Positions 2,843-23,210 of a stretch of 32,000 bases of DNA are shown one piece after another. The notes beneath the pieces were generated by a model, which had not been told where the DNA came from, did not search any database, and saw nothing but the letters and a program-made list of their open reading frames with translations. Origin of the DNA: Planctomycetales bacterium (GTDB lineage: Bacteria > 4484-113 > JAFGCY01); contig CP060262.1 of the NCBI GenBank assembly GCA_022646745.1, positions 2,310,001-2,342,000 on the forward strand, read 5' to 3'. The stretch's first letter is position 1. Each line of letters starts with the position of its first letter. A program made the position numbers and the translations under genes.

Positions 2843-2868
2843 GGGCGGCGGTTTCGTCGCCCTTTTTT
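2843..2868 (+). terminator. Rho-independent terminator after tricorn paralog A
   Basis: GGGCGGCG-GTTT-CGTCGCCC (8-bp stem with one G-U pair, 4-nt loop) followed directly by TTTTTT. It lies 50 nt after the stop codon. Confidence 0.6.
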
Positions 2869-3347
2869 GTGCCTGGAGGCCAGTGCCAGGCACTGGCAGG
2901 TCGTCAATCCGATGGATTGTCAATTGCTGGTTTCATACACCAGCCGCTGGCTGAGGCTTCTGCAAGTCAGAATGAGCTACAACATTGCCAATCAATGACA
3001 TTGCAGCGATCGCAGATTGGACGAAATGTGGCCATGGGCCGCATAGCCTGTCAGACCATGGGTCTGAGCTCCAGCATCTCGCTGTTTTGCTTTTCCGGCA
3101 CAGGCTCCGAATATCTCCTGCACGGTTCCTCCGGCGGATACACCGGCGGTACCGATACGGTCAGGGGCAATTGACCGTGCTCATATGGAAAGGCCGGATT
3201 GAGGCGGACCCCGCAGTTCCTGCGGTGTACGGCTATTGCGGCAGGGAAGGCATTCCCTGTGGCATGCCTGGGAGCGGATAGCTCCTGGCATGCCGCACCG
3301 AGGGGAGGGGGGCCAATTGTTACCGGGAATACATACACAAGTGTCCC

Positions 3348-3382
3348 TCTACACATATCCCGAATTGCTGTAGGATTTCATC
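3348..3382 (+). promoter_or_regulatory. Putative promoter of paralog 1, positioned for a leaderless or near-leaderless mRNA
   Basis: TCTACA (3348-3353), 17-nt spacer, TAGGAT (3371-3376), then exactly 6 nt to the ATG at 3383. Caveat: the AGGA inside the hexamer could instead act as a Shine-Dalgarno sequence. Confidence 0.35.
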
Positions 3383-6300
3383 ATGACGGGAACATGGGAC
3401 AAGTATCGGGCCATTTATATTGGAGCAGCTGCGCTGCTGCTGTTCGCCTGTGTGTCCTGCGGGGGCGGAGGCGGTTCCAGTAATACGGCGCTCCAGCCTG
3501 CGATCACGGGCAGTTCCGCCAGCTCACCGGAATCGGCAATCACGATCCCGGAGAATGAGCGAGATCCCGCACCGGCTGAGGATGCTCCTTCGATGGACGA
3601 TCTCAGCCGGATTCTCAGCGCAGAACTTGAGCGGTTGGGCAAGGACCCCGAACGCACCGCTGCCAAGGCACCGTCCGGTGTGGACAATGCGGCCTTTGAT
3701 CTGGTGGTGGCCTATCGCAGCCATTACAGCGGGGCCACCCTGCACTGGACGGAGCGCATGGTCGGCGACTATGACATGAACGGCGAGGTGAATGCCTCCG
3801 ACCTGACACCGATCGCGCAGCGCTGGAAGTTCCTGATTGACTACCTGCCGCCGGATGAGGCACGCGGCTTCGTCTGCTGGCCGAAGGGCCATCCGCGCAA
3901 TGGTGGTTTCTCCGGCGTGCTCAACGGCTTCCCGGGCTTCAACACCCCGGCACACCAGTGGCGCACCGCGAGAATCGACGGGGATGACAACGGCGAGATC
4001 AATGCCGCGGACATCACGCCGATCGCGCAGCAGTGGCAGGAGCGCGTGGACAGCTACCGCATCTACCGCATGGCCCCGGATGAGGATGAGTTCAGCATGT
4101 TGCGGCTCGGCGAGGAGGATACCTACACCATCCCGCGCAGCATCCACTTCAAGCCGGGCGAGACAGCGCCGGACCCGTCGTGGGTATACCGCCTGCACTA
4201 TGCGGATGTGACGATCCATCCGGGCACCTACCAGTACTACCTGGCACCCTATGACAGCCTCAGTGATGACGAGGGCACGCCCTCGCCTGTGATCAGCATC
4301 ACCTTTGACGACAGCAACCCGCCGCCTCCGCCGGAGGGCAACCAGCCGCCGGAAATCATCGTCACGGCGGACGTGACCAGTGGCGATGCACCGCTGCGTG
4401 TGGAGTTCGATGCCTCTGAATCAATTGACCCGGACGGGGAGATCGTGCTCTATGTCTGGGACTGGGAAGGCGACGGGCAGGTGGATGCCAGTTCCCAGAG
4501 CTCGCCGTATGCCTACCATATCTACCACGATATTGGCTGGTACCATCCGCAGCTCACGATCTGGGATGACATGGGCGGCAGTGCCACTGCCACGATAGAC
4601 ATCGAGGTCGGCGTGGGGGCCGGTGGTGTGCTGCCACCAAAGCTGGACCTGAGCGTCAGCCCGACGGAGGGCCCGGCACCGCTGCGGGTGGAAATAGATG
4701 CCGAAGTAGTTGCGGTGGATGGCAACTACTCAGGAATGCACTACGAAGTGGATGTCGAGGGTGATGGCGTGGTGGACTACACATACGGCAAGCATCCGAT
4801 GCCCATTCAGCCACATATATATGAGGTCGTTGGGACTTACCATCCGACCGTGACCGCGATCAATCATGCGGGCCTGCGCACCACCGCCAGTGTGGAAGTG
4901 ACGGTGAATGACAACATCGGGCCGCAGGCGGTGATCACACTCAGCCCGCAGACGGGCAATGCCCCGCTGGATGTGCATGTCAGCGGGCTGGACAGCAGTG
5001 ACCCGGACAGCAGCGAGTTAAGCTATGAGTGGACGATCGACGGTGTACCTTATGACGAATCCGGCGAACCGCAGCCCGGCGAGTTTGACAGGTCCTACCC
5101 GAAGATCGGTGAGCATGTATTCAGCCTGACAGTGACGGATGGCGGCGGCCTGACTGACTACACCGAGGAGACCCTGGTCGTGGTCCCGCCGGAGGGCGAC
5201 CTGCCACCGGTGGCCGTCGCCAGCGCGGAACCTCTGATCGGCGCGGCACCACTCAAGGTGATTGTCAGCCCGGAGGGCAGCTACGATCCGGAGAACCTGC
5301 CGATCACATTGCTCTGGGATCCATACGGCACCGGGAACTTCAAGAACTATGGCACAGCCGGGGTGTCATTCATATACGATGTTCCGGGTGTCTACGATGT
5401 GGCATTGCAGGTGCAGGATGCATACGGGCAGGCTGCCTTCGATACCGTGCAGATCACTGTGATTGACAACCACCCGCCTGTCGCGGCATTGTCAGCCAGC
5501 CCGGAAAGTGGTGATGCGCCGCTGTTGGTCGCACTAGACGCGACCGGGAGCTCGGATCCTGACGGGGATACGCTCAGCTTTGAATGGGACTACATCCATT
5601 ACCCCGGTGACAAGACCTGGGAGGCCGGCGAAGCGCTGGAGGCCTATGAATACAAGTTCGGCGGGCAGCATCTTGTGCGGGTGCGGGTAACCGACCAGTG
5701 GGGAGCATCCGCCATCGCCGAAACGACGATCCAGGTGACCGGACCAGGCTGGTACGTCGTCAAGATTGATGATGGCATGGCTGATTTCTGGAGCCCGGAC
5801 ATCGGGCTTGAGCTTGTGGATGGCAACCCGGCGGTGGCCTACAGCCATGGGGGCGCAGCGCGCTTTTCCCGCGGGGAGGATATTGACGGCCTGAGCTGGA
5901 CTACGCCGATTGACGTCGGGTTCTCTGATGACATCTACGGTGGCGTGCTCGGTCCCTCGCTGTCATATATAAACGGCGCACCTTGTGTGGGCTGGATGCA
6001 CCATTCCGGCGAGGTGATGTACTGCCGCGCGCTGGACTCGGTCGGATCTAGCTGGCAGGACCCGCAGCTTGTCTTCCATATCGGCGGCAGTGGCAGCGGC
6101 ACGGACATCATGGCGATAGCAGGCAACCCCGCCATGCTGTGGGTGGACGCGCTGGGCCATATGCGCTACTCACGGGCACTGGATGCCAGTGGGGGTATGT
6201 GGGGCACACCGTTTGACTTCGGCCAGATCAGCTCCGGGCAGGGCAACTACCAGGCGGAAATGGCAATCGTGAACAACACGCCGTCCGTCGCCTTCGTTGG

Positions 6301-6787
6301 CAGCAACTGGTTCGAGCCGGGCATCAACTACATCTGGTCCGATGACGAGTTCGGGAATGACTGGCAGGACTCCGTGGTCATCAGCGAGACGAACACCTCC
6401 TCCATCGGTGTATCGCTGACGACCATCGCCGGCAACCCGGTCGTGGCGTACTACTGTTCACTCGGCCTGGTGTTCCAGGTGGCCCCGGATGGCTTGAACA
6501 ACGAGTGGAGCGAACCTGTCGTGATCACCGCTGAACAGGGTAGCGGCGGCGGCTGGTTCTTCACCGGTGATGAGGTCTGCATCGCGGAACTAAATGGTGT
6601 GCCGGCGGTGCTGGATTCCCAGATGGGTCTGTGGATCGCCGAAAACGCCAATGGAACGAGCTGGTACGGGCCGGAGCATATCCCGAATTACGCCAGCGGC
6701 ACGACGTTTGCCCTGCTGGATGTGGATGGCCAGCCGGCGATCGCATGGCATAACAGCGCCGTGTATTACGGCGTGAAGCTGGACTGA
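3383..6787 (+). CDS. Surface lipoprotein, paralog 1 of 4: lipobox, split dockerin-like module, FN3-like, 5x PKD, Asp-box beta-propeller
   Basis: 1134-aa ORF. N-terminal hydrophobic segment ending LLLFAC/VSC followed by a Gly/Ser linker. Two EF-hand loops, GDYDMNGEVNASDLTPIAQRW and IDGDDNGEINAADITPIAQQW. PPPPP hinge. Five repeats of about 90 aa with PKD signatures (APLRVEFDASESIDPDGEIVLYVWDWEGDG). C-terminal repeats of about 50 aa. Confidence 0.88.
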   Translation: MTGTWDKYRAIYIGAAALLLFACVSCGGGGGSSNTALQPAITGSSASSPESAITIPENERDPAPAEDAPSMDDLSRILSAELERLGKDPERTAAKAPSGVDNAAFDLVVAYRSHYSGATLHWTERMVGDYDMNGEVNASDLTPIAQRWKFLIDYLPPDEARGFVCWPKGHPRNGGFSGVLNGFPGFNTPAHQWRTARIDGDDNGEINAADITPIAQQWQERVDSYRIYRMAPDEDEFSMLRLGEEDTYTIPRSIHFKPGETAPDPSWVYRLHYADVTIHPGTYQYYLAPYDSLSDDEGTPSPVISITFDDSNPPPPPEGNQPPEIIVTADVTSGDAPLRVEFDASESIDPDGEIVLYVWDWEGDGQVDASSQSSPYAYHIYHDIGWYHPQLTIWDDMGGSATATIDIEVGVGAGGVLPPKLDLSVSPTEGPAPLRVEIDAEVVAVDGNYSGMHYEVDVEGDGVVDYTYGKHPMPIQPHIYEVVGTYHPTVTAINHAGLRTTASVEVTVNDNIGPQAVITLSPQTGNAPLDVHVSGLDSSDPDSSELSYEWTIDGVPYDESGEPQPGEFDRSYPKIGEHVFSLTVTDGGGLTDYTEETLVVVPPEGDLPPVAVASAEPLIGAAPLKVIVSPEGSYDPENLPITLLWDPYGTGNFKNYGTAGVSFIYDVPGVYDVALQVQDAYGQAAFDTVQITVIDNHPPVAALSASPESGDAPLLVALDATGSSDPDGDTLSFEWDYIHYPGDKTWEAGEALEAYEYKFGGQHLVRVRVTDQWGASAIAETTIQVTGPGWYVVKIDDGMADFWSPDIGLELVDGNPAVAYSHGGAARFSRGEDIDGLSWTTPIDVGFSDDIYGGVLGPSLSYINGAPCVGWMHHSGEVMYCRALDSVGSSWQDPQLVFHIGGSGSGTDIMAIAGNPAMLWVDALGHMRYSRALDASGGMWGTPFDFGQISSGQGNYQAEMAIVNNTPSVAFVGSNWFEPGINYIWSDDEFGNDWQDSVVISETNTSSIGVSLTTIAGNPVVAYYCSLGLVFQVAPDGLNNEWSEPVVITAEQGSGGGWFFTGDEVCIAELNGVPAVLDSQMGLWIAENANGTSWYGPEHIPNYASGTTFALLDVDGQPAIAWHNSAVYYGVKLD
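3752..4039 (+). other. Split dockerin-like double EF-hand module of paralog 1 (aa 124-219)
   Basis: Two DxDxNGxVNxxDxTPxA loops separated by a conserved insert of about 45 aa (WPxGxPxNGGxxGxLxGxPGFxTPAxQWR). Confidence 0.55.
4346..5740 (+). other. Five tandem PKD domains of paralog 1 (aa 322-786)
   Basis: Repeated APL-V-FDAS-S-DPDG----Y-WD-GDG ... V-L-V-D motifs with a period of about 90 aa. Confidence 0.8.
5744..6784 (+). other. Asp-box (BNR-like) beta-propeller of paralog 1 (aa 788-1134)
   Basis: Seven G-x-P-A-[VIL]-x-[YW] strands: VDGNPAVAY, INGAPCVGW, IAGNPAMLW, VNNTPSVAF, IAGNPVVAY, LNGVPAVLD, VDGQPAIAW. They alternate with six D-x-x-G-x-x-W Asp-box-like turns: DIDGLSW, LDSVGSSW, LDASGGMW, DDEFGNDW, PDGLNNEW, NANGTSW. 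Confidence 0.65.
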
Positions 6788-6807
6788 GCCAGGACAGATC
6801 CCGGGTT

Positions 6808-6842
6808 TTGTCCCGCGGGCACCGGCAGGGTACAATGCAGAC
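6808..6842 (+). promoter_or_regulatory. Putative promoter of paralog 2, leaderless geometry
   Basis: TTGTCC (6808-6813), 17-nt spacer, TACAAT (6831-6836), 6 nt, ATG at 6843. No purine-rich SD between the -10 box and the ATG. Confidence 0.45.
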
Positions 6843-9800
6843 ATGGGACCAGGCAGGACCGGGCGGGCCGCAATCGCCGCTTGCTGTGCGCTGTGCTGCG
6901 CATCCCTGCTGCTGACCGCATGTGCTGGACGGAGTGGTGACGGTCAGCTGGATCCCGCAACTGCTGAAGCCGCAATCCCGCTCCCTCCAAGCGAAACCGT
7001 GGAGCTGCAGCTGCTGGAGGACACACTCGCCGCCGAACTGGAAAGGCTCGGAGTTGACCCGGATAGATCCGGCTCGCAGGCACCGAGTGGGGCAGCCAAC
7101 GCCGTCTTCGACCTGAGTGCGAGCTATCGCGACATCCGTGAAGGCGCGGTGCTGCAGTGGACCGAGCGCCTGCTGGGCGACTACGACATGAATGGCGTCG
7201 TCAATGCGGCCGACCTGACCCCGCTGGCCCAGAGATGGAAGTTCAGTGTTGACTACCGCGACGAAACTGAAGCGGGTGTGAGCTGGTGGCCGGAGGGTAA
7301 CCCGGGCAATGGCGGAATCGCCGGCATCCTCAGCGGCAGCCCAGGCTTTGGTACTCCCGCGCACCAGTGGCGCAGCGCACGGATTGACGGAGATGGCAAC
7401 GGCGAACTGAACCTGGCCGACGTGACCCCGATCGCCAGCCACTGGCAGGACAGCATTGACAGCTGGCGGGTCTACCGCCGCGGGCCTCAAGAGGGTGAAT
7501 TCACATTGCTGGAGGAGACGGAGGGCTGTGGCTATAGCCTGCTGCGCAGTGCGATGTACCCTGCCGGCAAGTCCGCACCTGACAACGGCTGGGCATTCCG
7601 CCTGCTGTTCGCCGAGCTCGGTGCAGCACAAGGGGAGTACAGCTACTTCGTTGCTGCCTACGACACGGCTTCAGGGACTGAGGGGCCGCAGTCCAACATC
7701 GTCAACCTCAACTTCGACCCGTTGGCCGAGCCGCCACCACCTCCGCCTGGCAATGCAGCGCCGGAAGCCACTTTCGGGATGGATGCATTCAGCGGGGACG
7801 CACCACTCGAGGTGAATTTCGACGCCGCTGCCAGTACCGACAGTGACGGCCGGATCGTCTTGTACCTGTGGGACTGGGATGGCGACGGCGTGAATGACCA
7901 GGGTAGCGGCCAGGCGGTACAGGCCCTGCACATCTACGGCCAACCGGGCTACTACCTGCCGCGCCTGACGGTCTGGGACGATGCCGGTGCGAGCAGTACC
8001 GTGGTGGCCGACAAGGGGATCAGCGTATCGCAGATGGGCATCCCCCCGCCACAGCTGGCACTGGCCGCCGGGCCGCTGGAGGGCAGGCGTCCGTTGCCGG
8101 TCGGCTTCAGCCCGGTCTACCACGTATCCGCCGGTGAGGAAGGGTTGCAGTTCAGCTGGGACTTCGATGGCGATGGGCAGCAGGACAGTGATGAGGCCGT
8201 CGAGTCCGGTGAAATCCTGCCATATACATATTGGGAACCCGGCAGCTACCGTGCGCGGCTGACGATCACCGATGCCAACGAACTGAGTGCCGCGGGCTTC
8301 GTGGATGTCAGGGTGACGGACAATGCCAACCCGCAGGCCAGCTTGTCTGTCACGCCGGCAGAAGTCGAACCGGGCCTGCAGTTCACACTGGAGGCTTCCG
8401 GCAGCACTGACCCCGATGGCGACGAGCTGGCCTACTTCTGGGACCTCGATGGCGATGGCGAGTATGAGGAGTCCGGCGGCACTGCTCCTACATTCAAGTA
8501 CTCCTTCAGCGAGCCGGGAGTGCACGAGCTTGGCGTGCTGGTCAGTGATAGCGCGGGGGCGACTGATGCGGCGACGGCCAGTGTCACAGTCACCGGTGAG
8601 TCAAACCTGCCTCCAATCGCTGTGGCCTCGGCCAGCCCGGCAGTCTACGGCGCACCGGCGGACATCACCCTCAGCGCGGTCGGCAGTGATGATCCGGAAG
8701 GGGAGCTCATTGAGCTGTTCCGCTGGGACCTGGATGGCGACGGAGTTTTCGAAGTCGAGACTGACAAGCGCACGCACATGGTGCATGTCACGCAGGTCGG
8801 TGAATACAGTGCGCGGCTGATGGTGGAGGACGAACAGGGCCTGACGGGTATTGCCGACACCAGCTACAGCGTAATCCCGAATGCAGCTCCCGAGGCTTTC
8901 CTGACCGGCAGCCCGGACGATGGGCAGATGCCGCTGTTCGTGCAGTTCGACGCCTCCCAGAGTTCCGACCCCGATGGCAACAGCCTGCAGTTCGCCTGGG
9001 ACTTCAACTACCTGCCGGGCCAGCAGCAGTTCGTGGCCGGCGAGGCGACCGCCAGCCACATCTATGAAAGCGGGGGCAGCCATGTCTGCCGTGTACGGGT
9101 CAGTGATGGGCTCGGTGGAGTGTCCCATGCCGACTTCGGCGTGGAGACACAGGGCAGCGGCTGGAACATCTACAAGCTTGACGATGCAGCCACATCCGGC
9201 TGGCGTACCCGGCTCGAGCTTGAGCTGGTGGACGGCCAACCGGCGGTGGCCTACCACGCTGACAACACGGGCTTTGGCAACCAGGACGATGTGCGCTTCA
9301 TCCGGGCGCTGGATGGGCTGGGCACACAGTGGGGCAAGCCGCTGCTTGTCGAGGACGGCACGCATCCCGGCCTCGGCGGACGCGGGATCAGCATGTCACT
9401 GATCGGTGGCCGTCCGGCGCTGAGCTGGGTGCGCGGCTCCGGCAACATCGTCTACTGCCATGCCAGCATCGGGGATGGCAGCAGCTGGTTCACTCCGGTA
9501 TCTGTCAGCAATGCCAGCGGCGTACCGCGTGGCGCCGGGCTCGCCATGGTGGATGGGCAACCGGCACTGAGCTGGGTGGACAGCGGCAACACTCTGCACT
9601 ACTGCCGCGCACTGGACCCGGCCGGCTTCAGCTGGCCCACGGCGCAGGACCTTGAACTGCTTGGCAACTTCGGCTACACGCATACCCCGGAGCTGGCGGT
9701 GGTGGCCGGCAAGCCGGTGATCGCCTATGTTGACGACCAGTTCATCGATGGCTCAGTACGCTGGAAGCCGGCGCTGGATAGCGAGGGCACAAGCTGGGAT

Positions 9801-10214
9801 GAAGCCGTGGAGCTGGACCTGGTGCTGAACCACATCATCGGCGTATCCGTGGCGGTGATCAATGGCAACCCGATGCTCGTGCATTACACACAGGACGGCC
9901 TGGTATTCCGCGCCGCGCTCGACGGCAAGGGCGAAGCCTGGGAGGACGCGGTGCTGATCAGCAGCGACAAGTACACCAACTCCTCCTTCTCCTACGAGCA
10001 GATGCGCATCGCAGAGCTGGACGGCAAGCCGGTGGTGCTCGCCAATGACATGGGCATCTGGTACGCGGACGATGCGGAGGGAAAAAGCTGGAGCGGCCCG
10101 GAGACCCTGCCGGATGACTGGCGGGCGGACACCTTCGACCTGCTGGTGCTCAACGGCGGCCCGGTGATCGCCTTTCAGGACAACGCACTGTACTACGCCG
10201 TCAAGCTGCCCTGA
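6843..10214 (+). CDS. Surface lipoprotein, paralog 2 of 4 (same architecture)
   Basis: 1123-aa ORF. Lipobox LLLTAC (Cys27). EF-hand loops GDYDMNGVVNAADLTPLAQRW and IDGDGNGELNLADVTPIASHW. PPPPPP hinge. Five PKD repeats. Propeller strands VDGQPAVAY, IGGRPALSW, VDGQPALSW, VAGKPVIAY, INGNPMLVH, LDGKPVVLA, LNGGPVIAF. Confidence 0.88.
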   Translation: MGPGRTGRAAIAACCALCCASLLLTACAGRSGDGQLDPATAEAAIPLPPSETVELQLLEDTLAAELERLGVDPDRSGSQAPSGAANAVFDLSASYRDIREGAVLQWTERLLGDYDMNGVVNAADLTPLAQRWKFSVDYRDETEAGVSWWPEGNPGNGGIAGILSGSPGFGTPAHQWRSARIDGDGNGELNLADVTPIASHWQDSIDSWRVYRRGPQEGEFTLLEETEGCGYSLLRSAMYPAGKSAPDNGWAFRLLFAELGAAQGEYSYFVAAYDTASGTEGPQSNIVNLNFDPLAEPPPPPPGNAAPEATFGMDAFSGDAPLEVNFDAAASTDSDGRIVLYLWDWDGDGVNDQGSGQAVQALHIYGQPGYYLPRLTVWDDAGASSTVVADKGISVSQMGIPPPQLALAAGPLEGRRPLPVGFSPVYHVSAGEEGLQFSWDFDGDGQQDSDEAVESGEILPYTYWEPGSYRARLTITDANELSAAGFVDVRVTDNANPQASLSVTPAEVEPGLQFTLEASGSTDPDGDELAYFWDLDGDGEYEESGGTAPTFKYSFSEPGVHELGVLVSDSAGATDAATASVTVTGESNLPPIAVASASPAVYGAPADITLSAVGSDDPEGELIELFRWDLDGDGVFEVETDKRTHMVHVTQVGEYSARLMVEDEQGLTGIADTSYSVIPNAAPEAFLTGSPDDGQMPLFVQFDASQSSDPDGNSLQFAWDFNYLPGQQQFVAGEATASHIYESGGSHVCRVRVSDGLGGVSHADFGVETQGSGWNIYKLDDAATSGWRTRLELELVDGQPAVAYHADNTGFGNQDDVRFIRALDGLGTQWGKPLLVEDGTHPGLGGRGISMSLIGGRPALSWVRGSGNIVYCHASIGDGSSWFTPVSVSNASGVPRGAGLAMVDGQPALSWVDSGNTLHYCRALDPAGFSWPTAQDLELLGNFGYTHTPELAVVAGKPVIAYVDDQFIDGSVRWKPALDSEGTSWDEAVELDLVLNHIIGVSVAVINGNPMLVHYTQDGLVFRAALDGKGEAWEDAVLISSDKYTNSSFSYEQMRIAELDGKPVVLANDMGIWYADDAEGKSWSGPETLPDDWRADTFDLLVLNGGPVIAFQDNALYYAVKLP
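7158..7445 (+). other. Split dockerin-like module of paralog 2 (aa 106-201)
   Basis: Same two EF-hand loops and the same conserved insert as paralog 1. Confidence 0.55.
7758..9152 (+). other. Five PKD domains of paralog 2 (aa 306-770)
   Basis: APLEVNFDAAASTDSDGRIVLYLWDWDGDG, LQFSWDFDGDG, STDPDGDELAYFWDLDGDG, FRWDLDGDG, SSDPDGNSLQFAWDF. Confidence 0.8.
9156..10211 (+). other. Asp-box beta-propeller of paralog 2 (aa 772-1123)
   Basis: Seven GxPA-type strands and Asp-box-like turns (LDGLGTQW, IGDGSSW, LDPAGFSW, LDSEGTSW, LDGKGEAW, DAEGKSW). Confidence 0.65.
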
Positions 10215-10260
10215 GTAAAGTGTTGAAGCCTGTTCCCCCAGCTTGCGAAGCAAGTGTTCC

Positions 10261-10294
10261 TTTACAGCCTCCCGTGAAAGGTTAGAATGTCTGC
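10261..10294 (+). promoter_or_regulatory. Putative promoter of paralog 3, leaderless geometry
   Basis: TTTACA (10261-10266), 16-nt spacer, TAGAAT (10283-10288), 6 nt, ATG at 10295. Confidence 0.45.
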
Positions 10295-13200
10295 ATGGCG
10301 TGGGAATGCCTTACAGGGCGGGGATTGACGGTGCTGCTCCGGACGGGGCTCGTGCTGTGCCTGCTCGCACTGGCATCCTGTGGTGGGCAGGTCGATAAGT
10401 CCAGCGTCAGCATGGCATCCTCGGGGCCTGTGGATCAGGCCGCTGCGCCGGTCAGCATCCCCGACAGCGAGCGCTTCCCGCCTCCCGCTTCAGATACTCC
10501 AACACATGAAGATCTGCAGGCCATGCTGGACAGCGAACTCGCGCGGCTCGGCAGGGACGAACGGACGACTTCACAGGCACCGCTCGGGAATGACAATGCA
10601 GTGTTCGACCTGAAGGTCAGCTACTTCGACCTGCGCCAGGGGGCAGTGCTGCACTGGACCGAGCGCCATCTCGGCGACTACGACATGAACGGCCTCGTGA
10701 ATGCCTCGGATCTCACTCCACTGGCCCAGCGCTGGAAGTACACCGTGGACTACCGCGATGCTTCTGAGGCCGGTGTGCCATGGTGGCCAGTTGGCAATCC
10801 GCGCGACGGCGGCTTCAGCGGTGTGCTGGACGGCAAGCCGGGATTCAATACCCCGGCGGACCAGTGGCGCACCGCCCGCATCGATGGCGATGGCAACGGT
10901 GAGGTGAACCTCGGCGACATAACGCCGATCGCCAGCCACTGGCAGCAGAACCTGGACAGCTGGCGTGTCTACCGCAGGGCCCCGGGGGAGGAGGAATTCA
11001 GCCTGCTGCTGCCGGACCCCGGGCTTGATTACACAATCGCGCGCTCGGCGAACTTCCCGCTGGAGCAGACTGGCCCTGACAGGAACTGGGCCTATCGCAT
11101 GCACTTCGCCGACCTCAACATCAGCGCCGGCAGCTTTGAGTATTACATCGCGCCGTATGACAGCCTCAGCGGCACGGAGGGCAGCCCTTCGCCCGTTGCC
11201 AGCATCGAATTCGTGAATGACCCTGAGCTGCCAGAGCCGGAGATCCCCGGCAACAAGCCGCCGGTGGCAAGCTTCATGGCCAGCCCGCGCACAGGCGACC
11301 TGCCGCTCACCGTGAACTTCGATGCGACTGCCAGCCACGACCCGGACGGGGAGATCGTGCTCTACCTGTGGGACTGGGAAGGTGACGGCGTGGTGGACCA
11401 GAGCGGCAACAACGTACCGGTCGTCAGCCATGTCTACACTGAGCCGGGCTACTGGAAACCACGCCTGACGATCTGGGACGACCTCGGCTCCAGCGCCACG
11501 CTGTATGCCAACATCAACCTTGAGATCAGCGAGGATGGCTGGCTGCCGCCGAAGATGACCCTGCGGGTGGAACCGAAAACAGGCAAGCGCCCACTGTCCC
11601 TGTTGTTCCTGCCAATCATTGACGCGCCGAATGGCATCGGCGGCTTGCTGTATGAGTGGGACTTCGACGGTGACGGGACGGTTGACAGCAATGCAACCAC
11701 CATCCTCAATCCAAATCCCTGGGAGAAGCCCGGGCTGGAATATGTCTATCAGGAGTCAGGAGTATTCCACCCCGTGCTGCGGATCACTGACAACAAGGGG
11801 CTGAGCACCTTTGCGATCGGGGATGTGGAGGTGCTGCCGAATGCAGACCCGGTTGCCAGCCTTGCGGTGTTCCCGGACAGCGGGGATGCCGAGCTGCGGG
11901 TCTCGCTGGATGCAGGCGAGAGTTATGACCCGGACGGGGATGAGCTGAAATTCTCCTGGGATTACCGCGGCACGGGCAAATTCTTCAGTACCGGCAACCG
12001 GGCCAAGGAGGAACACCGGTATCCGACCGGCACATATGAACTGGTGCTGCGGGTGCAGGATCCACATGGCGCATACAGTGAGGTGCAGCACACCATCACC
12101 GTCGGCGAACTGGCGCAGCCGACGGCAGTGATCACGGTCAGCCATCCGAAAATCCCGGTTGGCAGGCTGGTCTCCATCAGTGGCCGCGATAGCCTGGACC
12201 CGAACAACAGCATCCGCTATTGGCGCTGGGACATAGACGGGGATGGTGAATTCGATCCTGAGTTCGAAGGTAATTCAAACCTGCAACTTACCTTCGAGGA
12301 TCCCGGCGTGCGGCATATCACGCTTGAGATTGAGACTGCTGCTGGCTCCAAGTCACAGGCCACATACGACCTGGATGTGTATGTCAACCAGCGTCCGGTT
12401 GCCATCCTGACCGCCAGCCCGGACAGCGGGGAGTTGCCCCTGTCTGTCAAGTTTGATGCCAGCCAGTCCTATGATCCGGATGGCGGAAAGCTGGTGTACT
12501 ACTGGTGGCCTGATTATTACAGGACCCAGGATGCATTCAGGATCGATAGAACCTCAATGGAAGCGGAGTTTAACAATCCCGGGAAACATTTCTGGGGCCT
12601 GTACGTTATTGATGAATGGGGCCTTGAGTCGGATGTTTCTCTGGCGGAAGTGCAGGTTAACGGGCCAGGCTGGCAGCTCGTGAATATCAACGGCAAATCA
12701 AGGTATGAGAGCGCTGGAGGTCTGGTTGAATACCAGGGCAGGCCAGTTGTTTCCTTGAAGGCAGCACATCAGGCTTATGATGATCTCGTTTTGAGAACAG
12801 CCGTTGATCCATTTGGCCTATCCTGGAATGAACCGGTCGTCATCGATGAAATGGATGGTCCAGGCACAGGTTGTTACAGTTCCACGCTGGAAATTGTCAA
12901 CGGTACACCGACACTCGTATGGAGCACAGGTCCGGAGATGTTATGCAGCCAGCCGCTGGAAAGTTCTGATGACCTGTCGGTCTGGCGTGACCCATCGCTG
13001 ATTCAGTCAAACTGGAGTAATTACTATTCACTTGCAGACATGGATGGCCGGCCAGCCGTTTTGGCGACTTTTGACAACATCGGTTTTTCGTATGTACGTA
13101 GCGACGATATCAGTGGCCTTAACTGGTCAGTCTGGCAATCGCCACCTGTCTGGGAGTCCTGGCGTGCAATTGACCTGCTGTCGGTTCAGGGCCACCCGGC

Positions 13201-13708
13201 GTACTTCAATGTCCGAAAGCTTGGCAATGCCAGCTATGCGGTGACTTACTTCAACGCGGATGATGCGGATGGCAGCAGCTGGCAGCCTGCCGTGGAGCTG
13301 GCAATCGAGAAGCATCATGAGCCGAAGCTGGCCGGAGCGGTTATCGACGGCCGTCCGGCCGTGGCATATTCCGTCCGTGAGCCATTCGAAGGAATCCGCT
13401 ACTTGATCGCACTCGATGAATCCGGCAATAGCTGGTCTGAACCGGTTTTCCTGGACAGCAGCGGCGCGGACGACATATATGGCCTGTGGGACCTGGTCCA
13501 GCTCGCTGTTGTTGATGGAAGGCCGGTGGTGATGAACGGGATCGGGGACATGTGGCTGGCGGAGGATCCGCTGGGTGAGACCTGGGGAGAGAAGATTGAT
13601 TTCCCGCGGGATGATTTCATACTATTCACTGATCTTACGGACATCGGCGGCCACCCTGCTGTATTGGTTCAAGCAGCCTCGCTGCACTACGCCATCTACC
13701 TCCCCTGA
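10295..13708 (+). CDS. Surface lipoprotein, paralog 3 of 4 (same architecture; 3-prime two thirds lower GC)
   Basis: 1137-aa ORF. Lipobox LALASC (Cys29). EF-hand loops GDYDMNGLVNASDLTPLAQRW and IDGDGNGEVNLGDITPIASHW. Five PKD repeats. Propeller strands YQGRPVVSL, VNGTPTLVW, MDGRPAVLA, VQGHPAYFN, IDGRPAVAY, VDGRPVVMN, IGGHPAVLV. Confidence 0.88.
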   Translation: MAWECLTGRGLTVLLRTGLVLCLLALASCGGQVDKSSVSMASSGPVDQAAAPVSIPDSERFPPPASDTPTHEDLQAMLDSELARLGRDERTTSQAPLGNDNAVFDLKVSYFDLRQGAVLHWTERHLGDYDMNGLVNASDLTPLAQRWKYTVDYRDASEAGVPWWPVGNPRDGGFSGVLDGKPGFNTPADQWRTARIDGDGNGEVNLGDITPIASHWQQNLDSWRVYRRAPGEEEFSLLLPDPGLDYTIARSANFPLEQTGPDRNWAYRMHFADLNISAGSFEYYIAPYDSLSGTEGSPSPVASIEFVNDPELPEPEIPGNKPPVASFMASPRTGDLPLTVNFDATASHDPDGEIVLYLWDWEGDGVVDQSGNNVPVVSHVYTEPGYWKPRLTIWDDLGSSATLYANINLEISEDGWLPPKMTLRVEPKTGKRPLSLLFLPIIDAPNGIGGLLYEWDFDGDGTVDSNATTILNPNPWEKPGLEYVYQESGVFHPVLRITDNKGLSTFAIGDVEVLPNADPVASLAVFPDSGDAELRVSLDAGESYDPDGDELKFSWDYRGTGKFFSTGNRAKEEHRYPTGTYELVLRVQDPHGAYSEVQHTITVGELAQPTAVITVSHPKIPVGRLVSISGRDSLDPNNSIRYWRWDIDGDGEFDPEFEGNSNLQLTFEDPGVRHITLEIETAAGSKSQATYDLDVYVNQRPVAILTASPDSGELPLSVKFDASQSYDPDGGKLVYYWWPDYYRTQDAFRIDRTSMEAEFNNPGKHFWGLYVIDEWGLESDVSLAEVQVNGPGWQLVNINGKSRYESAGGLVEYQGRPVVSLKAAHQAYDDLVLRTAVDPFGLSWNEPVVIDEMDGPGTGCYSSTLEIVNGTPTLVWSTGPEMLCSQPLESSDDLSVWRDPSLIQSNWSNYYSLADMDGRPAVLATFDNIGFSYVRSDDISGLNWSVWQSPPVWESWRAIDLLSVQGHPAYFNVRKLGNASYAVTYFNADDADGSSWQPAVELAIEKHHEPKLAGAVIDGRPAVAYSVREPFEGIRYLIALDESGNSWSEPVFLDSSGADDIYGLWDLVQLAVVDGRPVVMNGIGDMWLAEDPLGETWGEKIDFPRDDFILFTDLTDIGGHPAVLVQAASLHYAIYLP
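10652..10942 (+). other. Split dockerin-like module of paralog 3 (aa 120-216)
   Basis: Same loops and insert. Very close to paralog 4 at the nucleotide level. Confidence 0.55.
11258..12661 (+). other. Five PKD domains of paralog 3 (aa 322-789)
   Basis: LPLTVNFDATASHDPDGEIVLYLWDWEGDG, LLYEWDFDGDG, SYDPDGDELKFSWDY, RYWRWDIDGDG, SYDPDGGKLVYYWW. Confidence 0.8.
12665..13705 (+). other. Asp-box beta-propeller of paralog 3 (aa 791-1137)
   Basis: Asp-box-like turns VDPFGLSW, SDDLSVW, DDISGLNW, DDADGSSW, LDESGNSW, EDPLGETW alternate with GxPA strands. Confidence 0.6.
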
Positions 13709-13711
13709 CGT

Positions 13712-13748
13712 CTGACACCGAATCCCCGAATTCTGGTATATTCCATTC
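13712..13748 (+). promoter_or_regulatory. Putative promoter of paralog 4, extended -10 and leaderless geometry
   Basis: TGgTATATT (TG at 13734-13735, hexamer 13737-13742), 6 nt, ATG at 13749. Only a poor -35 (CTGACA 13712-13717, 19-nt spacer). The CCCGAATT-CTG-TA core is shared with the paralog 1 promoter. Confidence 0.4.
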
Positions 13749-16700
13749 ATGGCTATAACCGGCGGCCATAACTGGGGAAAGTTTCCGGCTTATCTGTTTG
13801 CGGTACTGTTGCCTGTTGCAATTGCTGCCTGCGGTGGCTCGCGCGATGCAGGCATGAACCAGCCAGCAGCCGATCCTGCTTTGGGAGTACCTCCCGACAG
13901 CGAACTTTTCCCTCCACCTGCTGTCGACACTCCATCGCTAGAGGACCTGCAGGCCATGCTAGACAGCGAACTGGTACGGCTTGGCAAGGACGAACGGACG
14001 ACCTCACAGGCACCTCTTGGGAATGAAAATGCGGTGTTCGACCTGAAGGTCAGCTTCTATGACCTGCAGCAGGGGGCGGTTCTGAGCTGGACTGAGCGGC
14101 ATGTCGGCGACTATGACATGAACGGTCTGGTGAACGCTTCCGACCTGACCCCGCTGGCCCAGCGCTGGAAGTACACCATTGACTACCTGCCGGAAACGGA
14201 ATCCGGCGTGCCCTGGTGGCCGGATGGAAACCCGCGCGATGGAGGCCTGAGTGGCGTCATCAATGGCAAGCCGGGTTTCAACACCCCGGCTGACCAGTGG
14301 CGCACCGCACGTGTTGATGGCGATGGCAATGGAGAGATCAACCTGGCGGATGTGACCCCGATAGCCCTGCACTGGCAGCAGAATCTGGACAGCTGGCGCG
14401 TTTACCGCAGGGCACCCGGAGAGGAGGGCTTCACCCTGCTGCAGCCTGAACCCGGCCTTGGCTACAGCCTGCCGCGTTCAGCGCAGTTCCCGCAGGGGCA
14501 GGGCGGTCCTGACAACAACTGGGTCTACCGCATGCTGTTCCCGGACCTGGATGTCGGGCCGGGCAATTATCATTACTACGTCGCTCCATTTGATTCCACG
14601 ACCGGCACGGAGGGCGCAACTTCCCCTGTGGTGCAGATTGAGTTTCCCGTTGTCAATGAACCGCCGCCTCCTCCACCGGGAAATGAGCCACCGGAGGTCG
14701 TACTCAACGCGGATACTGCAATCGGCAATGTCCCGACAACCGTCAACTTTGATGCCACTGGCAGCTTTGACCCGGATGGGCAGATCACGCTTTACCTGTG
14801 GGACTGGGAGGGTGACGGAGTTGCTGACTTCTCCAGCAGCAATGCCCCGCAGGCCAGCCATGAATACACACGCTACGGCCGCTACAAGCCGCGCCTGACC
14901 GTCTGGGATGACAACGGTGCCAGCGCCTCCGCGCAGCTGGAGGTGTACATCACCCTGTTTGTGAATGGCAGGGAGCCGGCGGACATAGACCTGCAGGCTG
15001 ACGTGGTGGAAGGCAGGCGTCCCCTGCAGGTGCATTTCACAGCTGAAATGGACCTCAAGGGAAACAACCAGAATGACTACATCTTCGAATGGGACCTGAA
15101 CGGTGATGGCGAGCGTGATTCGAAGAACAAGCCATTGCCAGACGGTGTGCACTACACCTATGAACATGCGGGCAGTTACACGGCCCGGCTGTCCGCCGGT
15201 GATGGCTATGGCCTGTATTCCGAGTCATACCTTGCCATCAAAGTCCTGCCGAACACTGATCCTCTGGCAGTCATTGAATCGGATGTGACTGGCGGTGGTG
15301 TGCCATTGACCGTCAACTTCTCAGCAGCCGGCAGCTCCGACCCTGATGGCGACGCCCTGAGCTATGCCTGGGACATGGACGGAGATGGAGAGTTCGAGCT
15401 CGATACAGGCAGTGACCCCACAGCCTTGCATGAGTTTGTATTCATTGGTGAGTATCAACCTGCCGTGCGTGTCACGGATGAATACGGCGCGGTCGCGGTG
15501 AACAGCCTGGCGATCAGTGTCTCGACACCTGTAAACCAGGATCCAGTGGCATTCATCAGTGCCGATCCGCCAACCTGGTCCGCTCCGAAGACCGTTACTT
15601 TCAGCGGTGAGGGCAGTTATGACCCGGATACCGGGTCCGGGGTGAACCTCGTCTACAGTTTTGATTTTGACAATGACGGCATATTCGACCAGTCGTCCAT
15701 CAACAAGGAAGCAAGCTGGTACTTCGAGCAGCCGGGAACCTACCCCGTCAAGCTAGTGGTCGAGGACTACCAGGGTGGTGCTGGGGAAGCAGCATATCAA
15801 TTGGTTCTCACGGAGAACAGTCCGCCGGATATCGTGATGACCGCCTCTGTCACGGAGGGCAGCTTCCCGCTGCAGGTGGACTTTGACTGCAGCCAGAGCA
15901 CAGACCCGGAAGGCGATGATTTCCAGCTTGAATGGGACTTTGATTACTACAGCCCCGGCAATTTCGTGGAAGGAGGATTGACTGGCAGCCACGTTTACGA
16001 GACAGGTGGCTACCATCGCTGCCGGGTCAGGGCGACGGATTACTGGGGCCAGTCCTCCGAGGAGGAGATTGAGATCAGCTGCACCGGCAGCGGATGGTAC
16101 CTCAGTTTCGTTGACGATGCCAAAGTGCCTTACCAGGGCGAATCAGTTGACCTGGAAGTGATCAACGGCAAGCCGGCGATCTGCTACGGACAGCGTGGCG
16201 GTAATCCGCTGACAGCCTCTGTCAGGTACTGCAGTGCGATCGACGTTCACGGCCTGCGCTGGCGCAGCCCTCGCATGGTCAGCGACCTGGGAGAGGGAGT
16301 TGGCAGTGCGGTGTCACTGATTGACGACAATGGCCTGGCGCGAATTTCATGGCAGGACGCTTACGATGGGATCTTCACCTGCCGGGCACTTGATCCGCAG
16401 GGGCTGGCCTGGGGCAGCATCCGCCAGTTTCTTGACTATTTTCTTGAATATCCGCAGGGTACATCCCTGTCCATCGTGAATGGCAATCCAGCGCTGGCAT
16501 TCGTCACGGATGCAGAGCAGCTGGCATTTGTCAGGGCCAATGATTCCAACGGAGTTTCCTGGGCTGACCACATTCAGCTCGGGACCATCAGCAAGAATTT
16601 TGTTGACAACCACCAGATGCGCCTGCTTTCACTGGGAGGACTGCCATGCCTTGGGTTCATTGGCGACAGTGGTAGTTCGTCAACCGTATTATGGAGGAAA

Positions 16701-17138
16701 GCGAGTGATGCCAATGGAGCATCCTGGCAGAACAGCAAGGTTGTCGGACAAGCTGCCTCAGGAGTCCGTGGCCTGGGCATGGTGATAATCGATGGCAATC
16801 CCCTGCTTGCGTACTACTCTGATGTCGGGCTGGTGTGCCAGATCTCCCTGGACGATGGTGAAACATGGGAGCTGCCGGCAGTCGTGACGGATGTGCTGGC
16901 AGAGAGTGGCAGCAGGCCTTCCGAAGTCTGCATGATTGACTATGGCGGCGTGCCTGCCCTGCTGGACCAGTACATGCAGTTATGGGTCGCCGGAGATACC
17001 TATGGCGTGGGCTGGTCAGGCCCTGAAGCCATCCCGACCGTTGAGCCGGCTGACGCATTCGACCTCTGCATCGTGGATGGGAACCCTGCGGTTGCATTCC
17101 AGCAGGACAAATTGTTCTTTGCGATCAAGCTCCCCTGA
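13749..17138 (+). CDS. Surface lipoprotein, paralog 4 of 4 (same architecture; distal part lower GC)
   Basis: 1129-aa ORF. Lipobox AIAAC (Cys28). EF-hand loops GDYDMNGLVNASDLTPLAQRW and VDGDGNGEINLADVTPIALHW. PPPPPP hinge. Five PKD repeats. Propeller strands INGKPAICY, VNGNPALAF, IDGNPLLAY, YGGVPALLD, VDGNPAVAF. Confidence 0.88.
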   Translation: MAITGGHNWGKFPAYLFAVLLPVAIAACGGSRDAGMNQPAADPALGVPPDSELFPPPAVDTPSLEDLQAMLDSELVRLGKDERTTSQAPLGNENAVFDLKVSFYDLQQGAVLSWTERHVGDYDMNGLVNASDLTPLAQRWKYTIDYLPETESGVPWWPDGNPRDGGLSGVINGKPGFNTPADQWRTARVDGDGNGEINLADVTPIALHWQQNLDSWRVYRRAPGEEGFTLLQPEPGLGYSLPRSAQFPQGQGGPDNNWVYRMLFPDLDVGPGNYHYYVAPFDSTTGTEGATSPVVQIEFPVVNEPPPPPPGNEPPEVVLNADTAIGNVPTTVNFDATGSFDPDGQITLYLWDWEGDGVADFSSSNAPQASHEYTRYGRYKPRLTVWDDNGASASAQLEVYITLFVNGREPADIDLQADVVEGRRPLQVHFTAEMDLKGNNQNDYIFEWDLNGDGERDSKNKPLPDGVHYTYEHAGSYTARLSAGDGYGLYSESYLAIKVLPNTDPLAVIESDVTGGGVPLTVNFSAAGSSDPDGDALSYAWDMDGDGEFELDTGSDPTALHEFVFIGEYQPAVRVTDEYGAVAVNSLAISVSTPVNQDPVAFISADPPTWSAPKTVTFSGEGSYDPDTGSGVNLVYSFDFDNDGIFDQSSINKEASWYFEQPGTYPVKLVVEDYQGGAGEAAYQLVLTENSPPDIVMTASVTEGSFPLQVDFDCSQSTDPEGDDFQLEWDFDYYSPGNFVEGGLTGSHVYETGGYHRCRVRATDYWGQSSEEEIEISCTGSGWYLSFVDDAKVPYQGESVDLEVINGKPAICYGQRGGNPLTASVRYCSAIDVHGLRWRSPRMVSDLGEGVGSAVSLIDDNGLARISWQDAYDGIFTCRALDPQGLAWGSIRQFLDYFLEYPQGTSLSIVNGNPALAFVTDAEQLAFVRANDSNGVSWADHIQLGTISKNFVDNHQMRLLSLGGLPCLGFIGDSGSSSTVLWRKASDANGASWQNSKVVGQAASGVRGLGMVIIDGNPLLAYYSDVGLVCQISLDDGETWELPAVVTDVLAESGSRPSEVCMIDYGGVPALLDQYMQLWVAGDTYGVGWSGPEAIPTVEPADAFDLCIVDGNPAVAFQQDKLFFAIKLP
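14088..14378 (+). other. Split dockerin-like module of paralog 4 (aa 114-210)
   Basis: Same loops and insert as the other three paralogs. Confidence 0.55.
14685..16085 (+). other. Five PKD domains of paralog 4 (aa 313-779)
   Basis: VPTTVNFDATGSFDPDGQITLYLWDWEGDG, YIFEWDLNGDG, SSDPDGDALSYAWDMDGDG, SYDPDTGSGVNLVYSFDFDNDG, STDPEGDDFQLEWDF. Confidence 0.8.
16089..17135 (+). other. Asp-box beta-propeller of paralog 4 (aa 781-1129)
   Basis: Asp-box-like turns IDVHGLRW, LDPQGLAW, NDSNGVSW, SDANGASW, LDDGETW, DTYGVGW alternate with GxPA strands. Confidence 0.6.
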
Positions 17139-20531: not shown

Positions 20532-20609
20532 CTGACCTCGAACCCATCAGCATGCGCGTTCACGACGATATGCGGCAGCAGCTCGAACAGGATTTCGGCC
20601 AGCTCCTTT

Positions 20610-20960
20610 GTGTGGCCGCGGTCCCACAGCTTGCGGATTATATCGGCGCACACACTGCTGGAAGCCGCGGTAGGTGAAGTGCTGGACAGCAGGTCCAGCT
20701 ATGACGGCTCAGCAGGCACGGATCACACCGGCATGCAGATGGCGCTTGAGCTGTATCGCGCGACCTACGGGCATGTGCAGTTCAACGACCCAGCGAGCGG
20801 GTACGTGCTGCTGGCCTGCCTAAAGATGGCCCGTGCGCTGATCGCTGCGAAGCGCGGCGAGTTCCACACGGACAGTGTGCTCGACCTGGCGGGCTACGTG
20901 AAGCTGGCTACAGATTGTCGGCAGAAGGATCTTTCAGGCCCGGAACAATCTGAGCACTGA
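20610..20960 (+). CDS. Small phage-associated protein (DUF6378-like)
   Basis: 116-aa ORF with a GTG start. The segment YGHVQFNDPASGYVLLACLKMARALIAAKRGEFHTDSVLDLAGYVKLATDC resembles the conserved core I recall for small phage proteins (YG..nf..ia.....l...dv..mm.llKlaR......h.DS..DlaGYa.c). The start is uncertain. The 3-prime end overlaps the convergent gene by 53 nt. Confidence 0.4.
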   Translation: MWPRSHSLRIISAHTLLEAAVGEVLDSRSSYDGSAGTDHTGMQMALELYRATYGHVQFNDPASGYVLLACLKMARALIAAKRGEFHTDSVLDLAGYVKLATDCRQKDLSGPEQSEH

Positions 20961-21795: not shown

Positions 21796-21934
21796 AGGCC
21801 TTGCTCTCCAATGGTTACTATACCTTTGACAAGCATAACATGGATCCGGAAAGAGTGTTGGCAAATATAAGGAGTGTTAACAGATTGTTGGCACCGTCTC
21901 GCTCTACCCTTCCATCCATCCATCACCGGCACGA

Positions 21935-21957
21935 ATATTTTGCGAGGTGCAAAATAT
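21935..21957. repeat. Perfect 9-bp inverted repeat with 5-nt spacer
   Basis: ATATTTTGC-GAGGT-GCAAAATAT. AT-rich, 4 nt from the right att-like repeat, in the region upstream of the minus-strand Bro-N gene. Confidence 0.6.
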
Positions 21958-21960
21958 GGG

Positions 21961-22008
21961 TTGGAGAAGGCGATAGAATACCTTGTCGGCCAGTTGCTGG
22001 GCGACTAG
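21961..22008 (+). pseudogene. Relic of the original 3-prime end of tricorn paralog B (displaced by the insertion)
   Basis: Translates as LEKAIEYLVGQLLGD-stop. Compare the current gene end QLDKAIEYLTDTLNR-stop and the paralog A end QLEVAVRTLIEQLGDDSAH-stop. The relic tail is GC-rich like the host. The tail now in use (tatttaacagatacactcaaccgg) is AT-rich like the insert. Confidence 0.5.
21962..21980 (+). repeat. Right copy of the 19-nt imperfect direct repeat (att-like)
   Basis: See the left copy at 20488-20506. Confidence 0.7.
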
Positions 22009-22134
22009 AGGAAGAGGCATTCAATCCTGTTCAAATGGCTATTCCGGCTGGGCCGGGATATTTAACTTGCCTGCCGGGCATAACGAATAGGAATTGAGTG
22101 AAGTCCGGGGCGTCATTCCCCGGTCAAGGCAACT

Positions 22135-23163: not shown

Positions 23164-23210
23164 CTCTTCGTCTCCCTCTATTATCCCCAGTGGTAAAGAG
23201 AGAAGGCGGT

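Follow-up and report, generated by a model that had tools for sequence, protein, structure and literature searches.

A strain-variable tandem array of predicted stalked lipoproteins with a dockerin-like base and a lectin-like propeller head in an uncultured bacterial lineage

We analyzed a 32,000-nucleotide stretch of DNA from a Planctomycetales bacterium (assembly GCA_022646745.1, contig CP060262.1, positions 2,310,001 to 2,342,000 of the forward strand; hereafter the window), in which four giant paralogous genes, designated P1 to P4, lie head to tail between genes for the tricorn-type proteases TriA and TriB (Table 1). In the reading that we favor, with no more than moderate confidence, P1 to P4 are variable binding proteins, anchored by a lipid and with a lectin-like propeller head on a stalk, which belong to a lineage-specific family, stand on a new dockerin-like/FN3-like base (the N-module) and are encoded in a recombining island. 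Surface exposure, a binding function, the class of ligand and Ca dependence are features that we infer for these proteins. The building blocks and the overall plan, in which a binding head is carried on an Ig-like stalk above a lipid anchor, were already known, as were families of variable surface lipoproteins and hypervariable loci bordered by conserved sequence; new are the unannotated N-module family, the combination of the N-module with a propeller, and the exchange of cassettes between near-identical strains. A literature search for the combination of lipobox, dockerin-like module, PKD domains and propeller returned no match.

Open reading frame (ORF) calling reproduced the layout given by an earlier, sequence-only reading of this DNA, namely four plus-strand ORFs of the same lengths and starts, with start spacings of 3460, 3452, and 3454 nt and intergenic gaps of 55, 80, and 40 nt. 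The single architecture that it proposed for all four proteins (lipid anchor, N-module, hinge, five PKD domains, and propeller) was essentially right when examined by Pfam, by alignment and in AlphaFold 2 (AF2) models. P1 to P4 align end to end with 38–42% amino acid identity overall, far above chance, and identity drops along the protein from 52–77% in the N-module to ∼50% in PKD1, 25–47% in PKD2–5, and 25–36% in the C-terminal propeller head (the C-module). At the nucleotide level the four genes are 64–80% identical and share no long exact repeats; they are therefore old duplicates and not a recent amplification, and the same values rule out recent duplication or gene conversion among them.

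The array differs between closely related strains. One close relative is the metagenome-assembled genome (MAG) HKST-UBA01 (locus L004) from saline activated sludge (PMC8495973), whose TriA ortholog is 98% identical. The array contains four genes in the window, three in L004, three in L005, and two in L006, and P4 is absent from all three of the latter loci. Nucleotide identity between the window and L004 is 95–99% through TriA and the intergenic region and a patchy 68–94% inside the array, where colinearity breaks at ∼11500–11700 and returns at 17083. When P3 is compared with the third array gene of L004, the signal peptide (98%), N-module (92%), hinge (100%), and PKD1 (90%) are nearly or fully identical, and identity from PKD2 to the head is only 27–43%. 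The exact P4 sequence is also found, in the order P3-P4-TriB, on an independent ENA contig (L078), which speaks against an assembly artefact.

Synonymous divergence (dS) from L004 is 0.10–0.11 in the proteases, ranges from 0.09 to 1.3 along P1 and P2, and is saturated in distal P3, and the ratio of nonsynonymous to synonymous divergence (dN/dS) across the array is 0.03–0.3. The combination of an elevated, patchy dS with a low dN/dS indicates mosaic allele replacement and rules out positive selection on point mutations as the source of head divergence. The replaced cassettes have a third-position GC content (GC3) of 0.55–0.67 compared with 0.82–0.87 in the flanks. The fetched loci contained no relative of the P3 and P4 cassettes above 39% identity, the protein collection contained no candidate donor of the P3 head above 33% identity, and neither repeats of the phase-variation kind nor invertible elements nor silent cassettes were detected. 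Based on these comparisons, the array appears to be a copy-number-variable, recombining hypervariable island, a property that the sequence-only reading had overlooked.

The part of the protein that varies most is the propeller head. An AF2 model built from the P2 propeller sequence (pLDDT 88.5; predicted template modeling score, pTM, 0.89) has 28 strands and therefore seven blades. Its best global fold matches in Foldseek are the seven-bladed Photorhabdus PLL/PHL lectins (template modeling (TM) scores 0.70–0.78, E ∼1e-9 to 1e-10, root mean square deviation 3.4–4.5 Å over ∼360 columns), followed by GH145 BT3686 (TM 0.65–0.68), a PL42 lyase, and sialidases (TM ∼0.5), all of them with 10–15% sequence identity to the head. 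A search of the PDB with the head sequence gave no true match, only spurious antibody matches. Each head contains seven G-x-P-[AV] strands and six D-x-x-G-x-x-W turns, the latter corresponding to an Asp-box plus one residue. Among the four heads there is only one canonical Asp-box, in P4; the heads of P1 to P4 contain no RIP motif and do not match Pfam BNR, so they do not qualify as sialidase-type BNR/Asp-box propellers, which are defined by S-x-D-x-G-x-T-W repeats, RIP, and an arginine triad. The predicted fold thus bears out a propeller, with seven of the six or seven blades first proposed, but its turns are not canonical Asp-boxes. Only scaffold residues of the repeat (G, W, P, and D) are invariant among the four heads, which points to a head that binds and is not catalytic. 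The C-terminal motif shared by the array proteins, written as [YF][YF][AG][IV]KL[PD] in the sequence-only reading, falls on the last propeller β-strand of the model, and its conservation is most simply structural; P3 ends in HYAIYLP, outside that motif. The notion of a stalked receptor with variable lectin-like heads fits both the seven-bladed lectin fold match and the variability of the distal parts.

Distant homologs of the head in Bacteroidia bear a surface-sorting tail of the type IX secretion system (T9SS); in one of them (P0203), the propeller spans amino acids 8–338 and the tail, at 34.6 bits, exceeds its cutoff of 27. The head family is therefore surface-exported by another route in another phylum, which indirectly, and by analogy, supports surface exposure of the array proteins.

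At the other end of the protein, each of P1 to P4 has a signal peptide with a lipobox, as originally claimed, and the lipobox Cys is invariant in all four (the residues up to this Cys are LFACVSC, LLTAC, LALASC, and AIAAC, respectively, P1 having the VSC form). Judged by a positively charged n-region, a hydrophobic h-region, and the lipobox [LVI][ASTVI][GAS]C, these are predicted to be bacterial lipoprotein (Lpp-type) signals that lead to acylation. The segment L..EL.RLG, which had been described as a conserved helix, is helical in the AF2 model (pLDDT ∼96).

The N-module is ∼245 amino acids long and matches no Pfam or NCBIfam family at normal thresholds; an NCBIfam scan of P1 to P4 yielded solely partial, PKD-driven matches. 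In its AF2 model (pLDDT 83, pTM 0.79), the strand order suggests a β-sandwich, with two strands before a pair of F-hand loops and the rest after it. At relaxed thresholds, Dockerin_1 (PF00404) was the only Pfam family to touch the N-module, and it did so in all six modules tested, with scores of 12.1–17.8 bits (E 0.004–0.23) that lie below the Pfam gathering cutoff of 22.9. Searching the PDB with an N-module sequence gave marginal dockerin matches only; a profile of ten modules placed four cellulosomal dockerins on top (best E=0.0047), and both repeats aligned in order to the dockerin 2ccl_B. The two loops, DYDMNGEVNASD and DGDDNGEINAAD, have D or N at EF-loop positions 1, 3, 5, 9, and 12 and are each followed by a helix in the AF2 model. 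Across 61 N-module representatives, positions 1 and 12 are invariant or nearly so, and Asp at EF-loop position 12 is typical of dockerins. The loops are ∼70 residues apart with a low-confidence Gly/Pro-rich insert between them, which departs from the compact dockerin format of ∼60–70 amino acids, where only a short linker joins the repeats. In the array proteins, the inter-loop segment is 12 residues longer than in other members of the family; a 12-residue Gly-rich insertion (GFSGVLNGFPGF-like, e.g. amino acids 176–187 of P1, modeled with low confidence) is common to P1 to P4 and absent from the other members.

The remainder of the N-module may resemble FN3 domains. With the whole module, Foldseek gave no match at E<0.001, and its best matches were weak ones to FN3 domains of cytokine receptors (E≥0.013, TM ∼0.2, ∼87 residues). 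Pfam fn3 did not match the N-modules, and one N-module homolog is named FN3-containing by NCBI. Thus, of the double EF-hand and FN3-like parts proposed earlier, the split dockerin-like loop pair is present in the AF2 model and the PDB profile but is subthreshold in Pfam, and the FN3-like part fits the weak Foldseek matches but has no Pfam counterpart. Based on these models, the N-module appears to be dockerin-like and FN3-like and a member of neither family.

Between the N-module and the head lie a Pro-rich hinge and a PKD stalk. The hinge had been given the pattern PPPPPPGNxPPE; a hinge is present in the array proteins, and that of P3 (PEPEIPGNKPPV) deviates from the pattern. Pfam PKD models (PF18911/PF00801) detect 4–5 stretches per protein (127–175 bits compared with a cutoff of 27, E 1e-37 to 1e-52), and the alignment of P1 to P4 shows five PKD-sized units in each, in agreement with the five PKD domains first proposed.

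The N-module is not confined to this array. A scan of reference genomes found it in 74 loci, all from one group of uncultured MAGs that are labeled 'UBP7', 'bacterium', or 'Planctomycetales bacterium'. In the fetched loci, a hidden Markov model (HMM) of the N-module identified 138 ORFs, the C-module was found in 62, and 40 had both modules; tandem runs of N-module genes are common (e.g. four in L011 and seven in L053), and there are dozens of copies per genome in this one uncultured lineage. An exhaustive HMM search of 1.84 billion representatives found 186 N-module proteins at E≤1e-30 and 1136 at E≤1e-10, with the module nearly always starting at residue 35–75. This search overturned the extreme rarity suggested by a word-indexed search (15 and 8 relatives), which was an artefact; the indexed profile search also missed P4 despite the presence of its exact sequence in the collection. 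A lipobox-like Cys is present in 102 of the 136 representatives that start with Met, and free-standing N-module lipoproteins of ∼250–270 amino acids exist. Among the payloads of 61 representatives were PKD domains (36 proteins), a few other β-sandwich domains and one S15 peptidase, the rest having no Pfam family. With one enzyme in 61, we conclude that the N-module is a common base of binding-type lipoproteins and not an enzyme-display tag. By these sequence searches, the array appears to belong to a large lineage-specific lipoprotein family, which had also gone unnoticed.

Giant proteins that combine a stalk with another type of propeller are frequent in the lineage. At L001 (5776–14367), two genes of ∼1380 amino acids with PKD domains and PQQ/BamB-like propellers adjoin a free-standing N-module lipoprotein (P0004). 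Multiheme cytochromes (Cytochrome_C7, MtrC/MtrF-like) account for 4 of 115 neighboring ORFs (loci L008–L077) and are the sole repeated neighbor class of N-module genes besides housekeeping genes.

The genes that flank the array encode proteins with PD40, Tricorn_C1, PDZ, and Peptidase_S41 domains in Pfam. TriB aligns to Thermoplasma tricorn (1k32) with E=4.7e-46, including the catalytic Ser, His, and Glu (the SD, DHY, and E positions), and the TriA ortholog in L004 is 1100 amino acids long with a Sec signal peptide. From their domain order, and in TriB from the catalytic residues, TriA and TriB are assigned to the tricorn family. In orthologous loci, TriA is immediately preceded by the gene for a third secreted paralog, Tri0 (35–43% identity to TriA and TriB), beyond the edge of the window, which brings the number of tricorn genes around the array from two to three. 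The earlier statement that it sits between two exported tricorn-type proteases thus holds for the type and export of both neighbors (the signal of TriA being seen in the L004 ortholog) and was incomplete in their number. The order Tri0-TriA-array-TriB is kept on one strand in four related genomes, so the adjacency of proteases and array is not unique to this genome.

Consensus scanning placed a terminator-like hairpin after TriA and a −10-like hexamer exactly 6 nt before the ATG of every array gene, without a Shine-Dalgarno sequence, and this geometry is conserved in the orthologs (L004–L007). From these patterns, each array gene is predicted to have its own promoter and a leaderless mRNA. Shine-Dalgarno-like leaders precede other genes of the window, e.g. 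TriB and LpxD. Among 36 full N-module lipoprotein ORFs tested from the fetched loci, 10 have the leaderless geometry (eight array orthologs plus ORFs at L028 and L071); it is essentially confined to this array, and a family-wide trait is ruled out.

A tricorn homolog lies within ∼2.5 kb of an N-module gene in three more distant loci (L032, L036, and L044), a number that, for ∼1.2 Mb of sequence fetched, does not clearly exceed chance. The other ∼130 of the 138 N-module ORFs have no recurrent protease neighbor; the 115 ORFs adjoining other family members include no recurrent partner, no enrichment of proteases, and no cohesin; and six additional metagenome loci with an N-module contain no tricorn. 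These surveys do not support a family-wide protease partnership, and tricorn adjacency is, because other N-module loci show no protease enrichment, a property of this locus and not of the family. The tricorn proteases may be mere conserved flanks between which the island recombines. The functional coupling of array and proteases that the sequence-only reading had suggested is thus not established: synteny is kept, but TriA is followed by a terminator-like site, the array genes have promoters of their own, and the family at large has no protease neighbors.

In the reading that we favor, the genes of P1 to P4 arose by old tandem duplication and belong to a large lineage-specific family that encodes envelope lipoproteins. 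A constant base in each protein (lipid anchor, N-module, Pro-rich hinge, and PKD1) would carry a variable reach-and-bind part, made up of a PKD2–5 stalk of ∼15–20 nm and a non-catalytic, seven-bladed lectin-like head. Their most likely function would be ligand or surface binding at the cell surface, in adhesion or in the capture of glycan or glycoprotein material, and several heads of differing specificity would be on display, each gene being transcribed independently. Through homologous recombination within the conserved flanks (the protease genes and the N-module/PKD1 region), distal cassettes may be swapped and copy number altered between strains, with purifying selection acting within each array allele. 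Several points weigh against this reading. The heads are only 10–15% identical to the PLL/PHL lectins in structural alignments, and glycosidases and lyases are also found among propellers of this fold class. The dockerin similarity of the N-module lies under the Pfam cutoff, and there is no cohesin-like partner among the 115 neighboring ORFs. Lipoproteins of diderm bacteria can face the periplasm. The low GC3 of the cassettes could come from relaxed codon usage and not from foreign origin. Finally, the comparison of strains covers four related MAGs and one contig; it rests on few genomes because no additional orthologous arrays turned up in two metagenome scans, one with TriB and the other with the array-type N-module.

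It is possible, if rather unlikely, that the array proteins instead serve as substrate-capture antennae that hand protein or glycoprotein to the three secreted tricorn-type proteases, the whole being a protein-utilization locus. Such a role is consistent with the Tri0-TriA-array-TriB order, which four genomes retain on a single strand despite divergence of TriA to 57% identity, with the Sec signal peptides of all three proteases and the intact catalytic residues of TriB, and with the tricorn homologs close to N-module genes at the three distant loci. It is opposed by the terminator-like site after TriA, the separate leaderless-type promoter of each array gene and the Shine-Dalgarno leader of TriB. 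Most N-module genes, including those in other tandem arrays, have no protease neighbor, the three extra adjacencies are not clearly above chance, and synteny among related genomes is not in itself proof of function. We regard as very improbable the proposal that the heads are divergent glycoside hydrolases or lyases (sialidase-, GH145-, or PL42-like) and the array a set of anchored carbohydrate-active enzymes. Foldseek does match the head to a pseudaminidase and sialidases (best E=2.4e-10) as well as to GH145 BT3686 and the PL42 lyase, but its global TM scores are higher to the lectins than to the sialidases. The heads also lack a RIP motif and have almost no canonical Asp-box, and in proteins that are 25–36% identical the invariant residues are those of the scaffold, with no conserved polar constellation.

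Fainter still is the prospect that the array proteins are periplasmic adaptors that tether and activate the tricorns at the outer membrane, their variable heads selecting envelope substrates. S41-family proteases are known to act in the envelope together with outer-membrane lipoprotein partners, as in NlpI-Prc and LbcA-CtpA (PMC8764530, PMC8996183), and the array lipoproteins are likewise encoded beside secreted S41-family proteases. NlpI and LbcA, however, are tetratricopeptide repeat (TPR) proteins with no stalk or head, whereas P1 to P4 have a PKD stalk and a propeller head and no TPR family in Pfam and NCBIfam scans. A five-PKD stalk with strain-variable heads also seems poorly suited to regulating conserved envelope substrates, T9SS exports homologous heads in Bacteroidia, and the N-module family is far larger than the set of proteases.

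Features of the array proteins recur separately in several known systems. The SusE/SusF-like surface glycan-binding proteins of Bacteroidota have an N-terminal lipid anchor, Ig-like spacers, a C-terminal non-catalytic binding domain and high strain variability. The array proteins share with them an anchor, Ig-like spacers that would lift a C-terminal binding domain, and variation between strains; they differ in having a dockerin-like/FN3-like base and a seven-bladed head, in belonging to another lineage, and in the lack of a SusC/SusD pair or a polysaccharide utilization locus context at the array. Variable surface lipoprotein multigene families, such as Mycoplasma Vlp/Vsp and Borrelia Vsp/Vlp, and flank-mediated hypervariable loci are like the array in their tandem paralogs with a conserved N-terminal anchor region and variable outer parts, and in strain-to-strain replacement between conserved flanks; the array proteins are much larger and modular, and the repeats, invertible elements and silent cassettes of phase variation were not seen. 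As in cellulosomal type I dockerins, the N-module has two F-hand loops, each followed by a helix and with Asp at position 12, and as in X-module-dockerin dyads, the loop pair is closely associated with an Ig/FN3-like sandwich. Unlike type I dockerins, the N-module scores below cutoff and spaces its loops by ∼70 residues as opposed to ∼33. It is also N-terminal, beside a lipid anchor, whereas dockerins are C-terminal on enzymes; its payloads are almost never enzymes, and no cohesin is nearby. The head is similar in size and blade number to its best global structural match, the Photorhabdus PLL/PHL lectins, which are soluble and free-standing; the array head is anchored and has no sequence-level match to them. 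The flanking proteases keep the full order of Thermoplasma tricorn and its bacterial homologs (propellers, C1, PDZ, and S41), but Thermoplasma tricorn is cytosolic, and the three paralogs around the lipoprotein array have Sec signals and so are exported.

The array offers a clear case of giant lipoproteins with a constant base and an exchangeable head in which cassettes are replaced between near-identical strains, a pattern usually seen in molecules on which ecological pressure is strong, for instance in attachment, in the recognition of prey or particles, or in the evasion of phages. The presence of the N-module on dozens of lipoproteins per genome provides a handle on how a poorly known uncultured lineage builds its surface. 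A bolder version of our reading, which we consider improbable, makes the N-module a genuine Ca-dependent docking device by which dozens of lipoproteins per cell plug into a shared receptor or into each other for modular surface display, the tricorn-flanked array providing strain-variable capture antennae that feed extracellular proteolysis. Were this so, it would be a lipoprotein counterpart of the cellulosome or of T9SS display in a diderm uncultured lineage, and cohesin-dockerin-type assembly would extend to the lipoproteins of diderm bacteria.

Table 1. Coordinates of the array, its flanking genes and predicted signals, in window positions unless a locus is named
Feature	Position	Strand	Remarks
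TriA, tricorn-type S41 protease	1-2793	+	5' end cut by window start; frame open from nt 1
Terminator-like hairpin and T-run	2847-2871	+	54 nt after TriA stop; consensus scan, pattern match only
-10-like TAGGAT	3371-3376	+	6 nt before P1 ATG; no Shine-Dalgarno; kept in L004, L005, L006
P1	3383-6787	+	1134 aa; signal peptide and lipobox end at Cys26
P1 N-module	3566-4306
P1 F-hand loops	3767-3802, 3977-4012
P1 hinge	4307-4354
P1 PKD1-5	4355-5743
P1 propeller	5744-6784
Promoter-like TTGTCC-17-TACAAT	6808-6836	+	ends 6 nt before P2 ATG; hexamer 6831-6836
P2	6843-10214	+	1123 aa
P2 N-module	6978-7715
P2 hinge	7716-7766
P2 PKD1-5	7767-9155
P2 propeller	9156-10211		source of the AF2 head model
Promoter-like TTTACA-16-TAGAAT	10261-10288	+	10/12 matches; ends 6 nt before P3 ATG; hexamer 10283-10288
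P3	10295-13708	+	1137 aa
P3 N-module	10478-11212
P3 hinge	11213-11266
P3 PKD1-5	11267-12664
P3 propeller	12665-13705
Strain-specific replaced/inserted segment	11690-17083	+	distal P3 (PKD2 to head) and all of P4; low GC3
-10-like TATATT	13737-13742	+	6 nt before P4 ATG
P4	13749-17138	+	1129 aa
P4 N-module	13911-14645
P4 hinge	14646-14696
P4 PKD1-5	14697-16088
P4 propeller	16089-17135
TriB, secreted tricorn-type S41 protease	17262-20531	+	1089 aa; Sec signal MRLL...ARPALA; AGGAG Shine-Dalgarno
BamA/Omp85	23190-25061
Unannotated ORF	25104-26465		453 aa; signal peptide
LpxD	26490-27689
Tri0 (orthologous loci)	L004 2488-5922; L005 2456-5917; L006 2383-5877; L007 2278-5733

Downstream of TriB, the BamA/Omp85-LpxD cluster for outer-membrane and lipopolysaccharide (LPS) biogenesis shows that the organism is a diderm with LPS. 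The depositors' label 'UBP7' (L004 and L005) fits this lineage poorly, given its 62% GC content and a contig of 1.9 Mb, as UBP7 genomes are listed at 0.83–1.39 Mb and 36–53% GC in a 2024 review (PMC11382960). Some members of the lineage are named 'Planctomycetales bacterium' by NCBI, and the lineage has probably been reclassified since the 'UBP7' labeling, its current placement being uncertain.

Two further observations concern the surrounding DNA. An ORF of 632 amino acids (27769–29667) has a lipoprotein-type N terminus (LICILSAC), carries neither an N- nor a C-module and matches no Pfam or NCBIfam family. Directly after TriB, a segment of low GC content (0.54) at ∼20531–21968 contains an ORF with a Bro-N domain on the minus strand (20908–21864). 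This segment is absent from L006, where sequence matching window positions 21968–22540 directly follows TriB, and it is probably a small strain-specific insertion of mobile or phage origin.

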